Shown here one piece after another: positions 10,482 to 11,062 of a stretch of DNA of 38,344 nucleotides. The DNA is taken from the IMG/VR virus record IMGVR_UViG_2740892016_000005, one strand, 5' to 3'. The stretch is from a virus. Lineage: Duplodnaviria; Heunggongvirae; Uroviricota; Caudoviricetes. The stretch's first letter is position 1. Every line of letters begins with the position of its first letter. The notes under the pieces were generated by a model, which did no database searches, was not told where the DNA came from, and saw only the letters and a program-made list of their open reading frames with translations. Position numbers and translations under genes: made by a program.

Positions 10482-10869
10482 TGATAATGGCTTATACCCT
10501 ACACGGGATAGCTTAACTGATATCCCTTTTAACGGATAAAGGTATTCAAGCCTGACACATCATGCGCTGTATCGTCGCCGTATTCCCGTATTAACAGAGA
10601 CCGTAGCCCGACGGGGAACTCCTTCTGCGCGAGTGTGCGGGAATAATCAAAAACGATGCACACCGGGTTTTTACCGCGTTTATGGTTCGCGGGTTTGTCT
10701 CTCATGCTCGCCAGTCCTGTGCGGGGGTGGAAGAAACAGGACACTTACACAGATTCTTGTGGGCACGATGCTATGCCTTTCTGGATTATCCCGATGCCAT
10801 TCATGCAAGGCGTTGTATCAGACGTTCGTCAGAGCTGTCAGGCTGACGGGTCCTCCCGGTGGGGTGGCC

Positions 10870-10895
10870 TGCCACGGGGCGGGAGCGTCGCGGAA
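10870..10895. other. Candidate cos site (cosN-like box)
   Basis: CACGGGGCGGGAGCGTCGCGGAAAAAGG resembles the lambda cos region (ACGGGGCGGCGACCTCGCGGGTTTTCGC) as recalled; it lies ~180 bp upstream of the small terminase gene and is followed by an AT-rich repeat-containing region (cosB-like). Confidence 0.35.
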
Positions 10896-11062
10896 AAAGG
10901 CTAGTTTTTGCATTTTTATCGGCCATCATCATCTTTGCATCTTATTGATTATTAATGATTATTTGTTTTTTGTATGTCGAATTGAGTGTTTTTTGTTCGA
11001 CATCGAACGCGTTTTCTTAAAGTTGTTCGCACGATGCATGTTTAAAGCTCTCCGGAGGAAAT

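Follow-up and report, generated by a model that had tools for sequence, protein, structure and literature searches.

Genes and features at the locus

The window, by which we mean the whole stretch of 38,344 nucleotides of viral DNA that was analysed, is near-identical to the thrW-integrated prophage of E. coli Z247, with 8 mismatches in 31 kb. The interval under study, positions 10848-11062, sits between the lysis cassette and the gene for a DUF1441-type small terminase, which begins at 11063. The upstream genes, assigned from Pfam and PHROG matches, encode a P21-type holin, a lysozyme and Rz, and the downstream genes encode a DUF1441 TerS, a gpA-type TerL, a head-tail adaptor and a lambda-family portal protein. 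With lysis genes on its 5' side and terminase and portal genes on its 3' side, the interval is therefore placed where a lambda-type cos belongs. The two terminase genes are:

11063-11554, plus strand: TerS (DUF1441 / phrog_141), presumed reader of cosB
11554-13656, plus strand: TerL (gpA family), presumed cosN nickase and packaging motor

The terS gene lies directly 5' of terL, and its stop overlaps the terL start at 11554. TerS, TerL and the portal protein are all full-length with strong family matches. For TerS these are to Pfam DUF1441 (4.6e-44 over residues 10-149) and to phrog_141 'terminase small subunit' (2.7e-77), the family match being full-length, and for TerL they are to GpA_ATPase (8.4e-72) and GpA_nuclease (5.1e-85) in Pfam. 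Against lambda gpA, TerL shows 24% identity in 625 aa (E=4e-18); TerS gave no BLASTP similarity to lambda gpNu1. The N-terminal segment of TerS, NQLAALSGLHRQTVVARL, is helix-turn-helix-like, with a weak HTH_30 match to residues 11-40 that falls under the cutoff. A sequence search of TerS against the PDB returned nothing significant (HTH match E=0.78), and a single-sequence AlphaFold model of the protein was poor (pLDDT 53).

Some other features upstream of the interval can be mentioned here. The region separating the Q antiterminator from the holin contains a gene for an 'ATP-dependent nuclease', which is on the opposite strand (~5743-7194, minus), and one for an N6/N4 DNA methyltransferase (7951-9003, plus); both are likely to be moron or defence cargo. 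A 71-aa ORF at 10529-10744 (minus strand) has no Pfam or PHROG match. The DNA of this ORF at 10600-10743 is shared at 95-98% identity with many lambdoid phages that otherwise differ, among them phage 21 and lambda-like isolates.

The GC-rich box contains sequences matching lambda cosQ and cosN

The left part of the interval is a GC-rich box (10848-10893, 82.6% G+C), in which the following features can be placed (slashes mark predicted nick positions):

10848-10854, plus strand: cosQ heptamer GGGTCCT (packaging-termination signal), identical to lambda cosQ (lambda 48473-48479)
10855-10874, plus strand: cosQ-cosN spacer; the whole interval from cosQ to the top-strand nick, 10855-10876, is 22 nt and includes the CG flank of cosN
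10875-10890, plus strand: cosN, CG/GGGCGGGAGCGT/CG, with predicted nicks after 10876 (top) and opposite 10888/10889 (bottom)
10877-10888, plus strand: predicted 12-nt 5' cohesive end GGGCGGGAGCGT, which is the first 12 bases of AB285204 and OV696610

A first-pass annotation of the sequence had proposed a divergent lambda-like cos with its cosN in a GC-rich box. The box it pointed to, CACGGGGCGGGAGCGTCGCGG, is present at 10873-10893 and resembles the lambda sequence without being identical to it; cosQ, which that annotation did not name, begins at the very first base of the interval. Alignment to lambda cos, part of the check that it had suggested, gives GGGTCCT - 23 nt - ACG/GGGCGGCGACCT/CGCGGG for lambda and GGGTCCT - 22 nt - ACG/GGGCGGGAGCGT/CGCGGA for the window. 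It can be seen that cosQ, the flanks of both nick positions and bases 1-6 of the cohesive end (GGGCGG) are identical, and that the spacing agrees to within 1 bp. The 12-mer GGGCGGGAGCGT matches lambda GGGCGGCGACCT at 8/12 bases, the differences falling at bases 7, 8, 9 and 11, and the rotational symmetry of cosN, counted from the sequences, is 8/16 bp in the window compared with 10/16 in lambda. The proposal of a divergent lambda-like cos therefore holds: the packaging-gene neighbours, cosQ, the nick flanks and the GGGCGG left half all agree with lambda.

The distance from cosQ to the nick is 22 nt in the window and in cdtI, Tritos, mEp213 and Kp4865, 23 nt in lambda, and 24 nt in CP-1639 and VT1-Sakai. 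The terS start falls at cos bp 187 in the window, as against 191 in lambda.

As a composite pattern, GGGTCCT-N15-25-ACGGGGCGG is found a single time in the window and at a frequency of 0.00 in 100 shuffles, which excludes chance for the GC-rich part. Even with 3 mismatches permitted, the 17-mer ACGGGGCGGGAGCGTCG matches nowhere else in the window. A full-text literature search for the 12-mer GGGCGGGAGCGT returned an unrelated mammalian paper as its sole match.

Candidate TerS and IHF sites in the AT-rich DNA that follows

As the first-pass annotation had stated, AT-rich DNA follows the box: positions 10894-11062 are 33.7% G+C, compared with 50.1% for the whole window. Its figure of ~180 bp to the small terminase gene is a fair one, the ATG at 11063 lying 186 bp past the predicted nick and 170 bp past the end of the GC-rich box. 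By comparison with lambda and with related phages, the following features were assigned to this region:

10894-10925, plus strand: I2-like spacer with phased A5/T5 tracts (AAAAAGGCTAGTTTTTGCATTTTTATCGGCCA), cos bp 18-49
10926-10933, plus strand: candidate R3 (TerS-binding) site TCATCATC, cos bp 50-57, at the position of lambda R3
10938-10950, minus strand: candidate IHF site I1 (AATCAATAAGATG), 1 mismatch to WATCAANNNNTTR, cos bp 62
10974-10981, minus strand: candidate R2, inverted (TTCGACAT on the minus strand), cos bp 98-105
10996-11004, plus strand: candidate R1 TTCGACATC, cos bp 120-128
11016-11047, plus strand: conserved block TTAAAGTTGTTCGCACGATGCATGTTTAAAGC, between R1 and the terS ribosome-binding site

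In lambda, I2 (bp 18-50) is AT-rich and statically bent, and is required after cos cleavage (PMC4856287), and R3 spans bp 50-65 (PMC9026076). With the candidate R and IHF sites assigned in this way, the subsites of the window would be the same as those of lambda in identity, order and orientation (cosQ-cosN-I2-R3-I1-R2-R1), with R3 starting at bp 50 in both (PMC9026076, PMC4856287). The R sequences themselves are, in contrast, unrelated to those of lambda, which are of the CGTTTCC type, and the R2-R1 spacing is ~22 bp in the window compared with ~43 bp in lambda.

The candidate R2 and R1 sites together form a perfect 8-bp inverted repeat, ATGTCGAA/TTCGACAT, and correspond to the TCGAA-type inverted motifs that had been flagged where cosB would be expected. 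All three of the motifs named there are present (GTCGAA at 10976-10981, TTCGAC at 10996-11001 and TCGAAC at 11003-11008), and the inverted TCGA pair falls at the positions expected for R2 and R1; TCGAAC, however, is not conserved in relatives. Both TCGAAC and the small terminator-like hairpin that it forms with R1 (10994-11009) are absent from mEp460-type cosB, and from these sequences the third motif is probably not itself a site.

The octamer TTCGACAT has two occurrences in 38 kb, both in cosB, inverted and 22 bp apart; this number is not above chance (1.34 expected), but the clustering is. The shorter motif TCRWCAT, which was chosen post hoc, occurs three times in 174 bp (bp 50 on the plus strand, bp 98 on the minus strand and bp 121 on the plus strand) as against 0.86 per kb in the window. 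In a k-mer repeat search of cosB alone, most of the output was T-rich repeats (TTTGCAT, GTTTTTTG), and the R motif did not stand out; TTTGCAT is present three times in cosB and is thus as frequent as the R motif when the window is considered alone. The candidate R sites were recognised only through cross-phage comparison.

An IHF site had also been expected in the AT-rich stretch, and an IHF-like match was indeed found between R3 and R2. This candidate, I1, is the only place in cosB where the IHF consensus is matched to within 1 mismatch. Alone it is not significant (P about 0.28, from shuffles), and it gains weight only because its position is conserved in relatives.

Conservation of the cos region among relatives

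To place these features in context, we compared the 230 nt upstream of terS in 79 IMG/VR loci with the same or an 87%-identical TerS. cosQ is almost invariant in 59 unique related cos regions. In several loci the upstream DNA is unrelated (for example L020, L044, L053 and L056) and homology begins exactly at GGGTCCT. The spacer is the most polymorphic part by sequence, and yet its length shifts by at most 1 base among the 79 loci (21 nt in L044), indicating a constraint on length rather than on sequence. Seven loci (L016, L018, L031 and four others) carry GGCTCCT instead of GGGTCCT at cosQ, ~29 nt before cosN, and these copies may be defective in packaging termination.

cosN and the GGAAAAAGGCTAGTTTTTG that follows it are nearly invariant among the 79 loci, and GGAAAAAGGCTAGTTTTTG is invariant in three cosB types. 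The cosN variants found were GGGCGGGAGCGG, ...GCAT, GGGCGGCAGCGG and one GGGCGAGAGCGT, all of which except GGGCGAGAGCGT differ within bases 7-12. This agrees with the pattern published for lambda-like phages, in which the right half of cosN varies while cosQ and the CG flanks are conserved, the right half being free to vary because TerL is positioned there by cosB (PMC4669245). The suggestion that a divergent cohesive end would be relevant to packaging specificity is upheld for cosB and probably not for the cohesive-end differences, since right-half cosN changes are phenotypically near-neutral in lambda/N15 genetics (PMC4669245).

Within cosB, the R1 block is invariant in 22/22 unique window-type sequences and polymorphic inside the mEp460-type group, and R3 reads CCATCATC in most window-type relatives, rather than TCATCATC. 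The block TTAAAGTTGTTCGCACGATGCATGTTTAAAGC hardly varies, either inside each of the three closest cosB types or from one of them to another, and may be an additional TerS contact or a context for translation initiation. Part of it, TTGTTCGCAC, resembles the left flank of R1.

The comparison was extended to ten cos types associated with DUF1441 TerS proteins of 44-100% identity (window-type, mEp460-type, L059-type, mEp213, Kp4865, CP-1639, VT1-Sakai, Fels-1, Gifsy-2 and Chris1). TCRWCAY is present on the plus strand at bp 44-52 in 8/10 types, being degenerate in CP-1639 (CCATCAC) and Gifsy-2 (TCAGCAC). On the minus strand at bp 96-100 it is found in 9/10, the L059 type having TTAACAT. At bp 119-126 on the plus strand it is again found in 8/10, the mEp213/Kp4865 type having TCACCAT, which overlaps its terS start. 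The IHF consensus, with no more than 1 mismatch allowed, is matched on the minus strand at bp 61-64 in 9/10 DUF1441 types, or 10/11 when cdtI is counted. Four of these matches are perfect (mEp460-type, CP-1639, Chris1 and cdtI); the Gifsy-2 match is shifted to about bp 76 on the opposite strand.

The Y base of the motif is uniform across the R sites of each phage, reading CAT in the window, VT1-Sakai, Fels-1 and Chris1, and CAC in the mEp460-type, CP-1639 and Gifsy-2. One shared Y base per phage is what would be predicted if one protein reads all three sites.

Comparison with known cos systems

The records of phages cdtI (AB285204/NC_009514) and Tritos (OV696610) begin with GGGCGGGAGCGTCGCGGAAAAAGGCTAGTTTTT and end with ...CTGCCACG (...CCACG), base 1 corresponding to window position 10877. 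These record starts were either experimentally determined or set by analogy with lambda. Tritos is an LF82 prophage and a plaque-forming siphovirus (PMC9928086). The Tritos paper maps virion reads and does not analyse the Tritos ends. The window and cdtI/Tritos are identical or nearly so in cosQ, the 22-nt spacer length, ACG/GGGCGGGAGCGT/CGCGG and the next ~20 bp (GGAAAAAGGCTAGTTTTT), and the GGAAAAAGGCTAGTTTTTG after cosN is common to them despite a TerS of only 42% identity. The cdtI TerL is 88% identical to that of the window overall and ~100% identical in the part that starts at residue ~330 and takes in the nuclease domain, and cdtI has its IHF-like site at the same position, where the match is perfect. 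Beyond bp ~35, in contrast, cdtI cosB is unrelated to that of the window and lacks TCRWCAY motifs. Judged by these sequences, the two share a cutting module and differ in the recognition module, and presumably in packaging specificity too.

A different relationship is seen with the mEp460-type phages (mEp460, mEp460_4F5, ev081, Ayreon and phi458). These have the same cosQ and cosN, with mEp460 itself reading GGGCGGGAGCGG, the same cosB length and layout, a terS start at bp 187, and a TerS that is 86-87% identical. Their R motifs, however, all end in CAC (TCATCAC, TCGACAC and TCATCAC) rather than the CAT of the window. Their IHF site is perfect and flanked by a palindrome (CTGTAAT...ATTACAG, cos bp ~55-85, for example in L049), which the window lacks. 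The palindrome arms covary in some mEp460-type loci, for example AATGCA...TGCATT in L055.

Among Salmonella phages, Gifsy-1, Gifsy-2 and Fels-1 share the TerS family (44-48% identity), and Fels-1 and Gifsy-2 have TCRWCAY sites at matching positions. [quoted passage not shown] Retention of cosQ and of the critical cosN bases despite divergent terminases has been noted earlier for mEp213/LLS (PMC12315714).

Phages PhiR40.1, PhiR47.1 and PhiR55.1, which have been used in plaque assays (PMC13190303), have a TerS that is 100% identical to that of the window, and PhiR40_1 differs at 3 positions in 10840-11070. cosQ, cosN and all of the candidate R sites match those of these plaque-forming PhiR40.1-type phages.

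In the Ayreon genome, for which virion DNA was assembled and GapFiller used for closure, a chimeric stretch of ~150 nt (L003 1780-1935; MF807953 44409-44565) exactly replaces CGGGAGCGTCGC (cosN) and includes a copy of part of terS (window 11398-11463). Such a chimera at cosN is expected if reads stop at physical ends, and the Ayreon 'putative late gene regulator' CDS is probably an artefact. The mEp460 and Ayreon records were opened arbitrarily just before terS and are uninformative on the ends. The mEp460_4F5 record (L001 1-30) opens 5 nt before the predicted nick, with 3 nt of cosN missing. In mEp460_ev081 (L004 1709-1925, LR597641) a ~110-nt tandem duplication covers I2/R3/I1/R2, and this is either real or an assembly artefact.

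Alternative interpretations

It is highly improbable that, instead of a packaging site, the interval holds a coding sequence such as a small ORF or a regulatory element such as a terminator hairpin or an sRNA. mEp460_059 has an ORF call at 10656-10904 (plus strand) with a match to phrog_17397, and in the PhiR40_1 record a CDS corresponds to 10768-11073 (plus strand), but the reading frame across cos is lost in other cosB types and the upstream DNA is swapped exactly at cosQ in many relatives. ORF calls across cosQ/cosN are therefore probably spurious, since the frame is not preserved in the other cosB types. The terminator-like hairpin at 10994-11009 would suit a regulatory element, but it is missing from mEp460-type cosB; Rfam gave no family above threshold in the interval, and a promoter scan found no sigma-70-like promoter there. 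Less improbable, though still very unlikely, is a cos site with an overhang other than 12 nt or with a shifted bottom-strand nick. The gap between ACG and CGCGG is 9 nt in mEp460_4F5 (L001), 10 nt in CP-1639 (L093) and 11 nt in VT1-Sakai (L095). The distant cyanophage Cr-LKS3, which has a DUF1441 TerS, has a mapped 9-nt 5' end (PMC9303873), and the bottom-strand nick of lambda is set by the distance from R3 (PMC9026076). The window and lambda agree, however, in a flank gap of exactly 12, and the same 12-mer serves as left end in the records of cdtI and Tritos. As to the 9-11-nt gaps themselves, either cohesive-end length is naturally polymorphic or, in the case of 4F5, the short gap is an artefact of assembly at the ends.

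Of more weight, while still unlikely, is that the site is a genuine cos by sequence but a relic in a defective prophage that is never cut by its own terminase, in which case it would at most serve helper phages or recombination. The near-identical Z247 prophage (L100) has a frameshifted integrase and a nonsense codon in its ClpP-protease/major-capsid fusion gene; the window stops short of the integrase/attL end of the prophage, so that integrity cannot be judged from it; and decayed copies do exist, as seen in the seven related loci with the mutated cosQ GGCTCCT. On the other hand, codon 397 of the fusion gene is CAG in the window (16316-16318) where Z247 has TAG (L100 25477-25479), and the window ORF at 15126-17345 is open. 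The full-length TerS, TerL and portal protein, together with the cosQ, cosN and R sites found also in plaque-forming PhiR40.1-type phages, likewise argue against a relic. This reading leaves the identity of the site unchanged.

Identity and proposed working of the site

We conclude that, very probably, 10848-11062 is the cos of a lambda-like E. coli prophage integrated at thrW and functions in the same way as the cos of lambda. The sequence anatomy, the conservation pattern, the identity of the neighbouring genes and the existence of deposited genomes opened at GGGCGGGAGCGT are directly established; from these we infer the nick positions and overhang polarity in this element, as well as the binding of TerS to the three R motifs and of IHF at I1. 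On its sequence, the site is a cosN of the cdtI/Tritos type joined to a cosB of the Gifsy/mEp460 family.

In the proposed scheme, TerS dimers would bind during late growth to R3 (TCATCATC) and to the inverted R2 (TTCGACAT) across an IHF-assisted bend, with R1 (TTCGACATC) serving as a third TerS site. Bound TerS would anchor TerL about 47 bp away, on cosN. TerL would then nick the top strand after ACG (10876/10877) and the bottom strand 12 nt further on, leaving 5' overhangs GGGCGGGAGCGT, and packaging would run rightward, in the direction of the terminase and head genes. The terminating cut would be triggered by cosQ (GGGTCCT) and cosN when the next cos of the concatemer is reached.

Packaging specificity and use as a marker

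A lambda-type cos of this kind is already known, very widespread and ordinary, although no phage record that we examined annotates the site as cos. The understanding of packaging is unchanged, and the practical value is in annotation: once cos is located, the virion genome has its true ends and its orientation fixed, ORFs called across cos are flagged as spurious, and the requirements for packaging of a helper phage or satellite by this terminase are defined.

What may be mildly new, from comparison of the sequences, is that TerS subtypes with cosQ/cosN in common differ in a coordinated way, CAT against CAC, at all three candidate R sites. It is possible, and we offer it tentatively, that TCRWCAT (window-type) and TCRWCAC (mEp460-type) form a natural packaging-specificity pair analogous to lambda/21. 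No firmer is the suggestion that such a pair might be set by one bp per R site together with 1-2 residues of the TerS recognition helix. If true, this pair would bear on which helper can mobilise a given prophage, hybrid or satellite in E. coli. The CAT and CAC classes recur in more distant relatives.

When the 231-bp region was used as a BLAST query against complete E. coli genomes, 2166 of the 5426 (about 40%) gave a match, with at least 80% of the region covered in 1419. One cosQ/cosN cassette is thus joined to several cosB/TerS modules and found in ~40% of these genomes, which makes the region a useful marker for prophage typing and for the prediction of cross-packaging.
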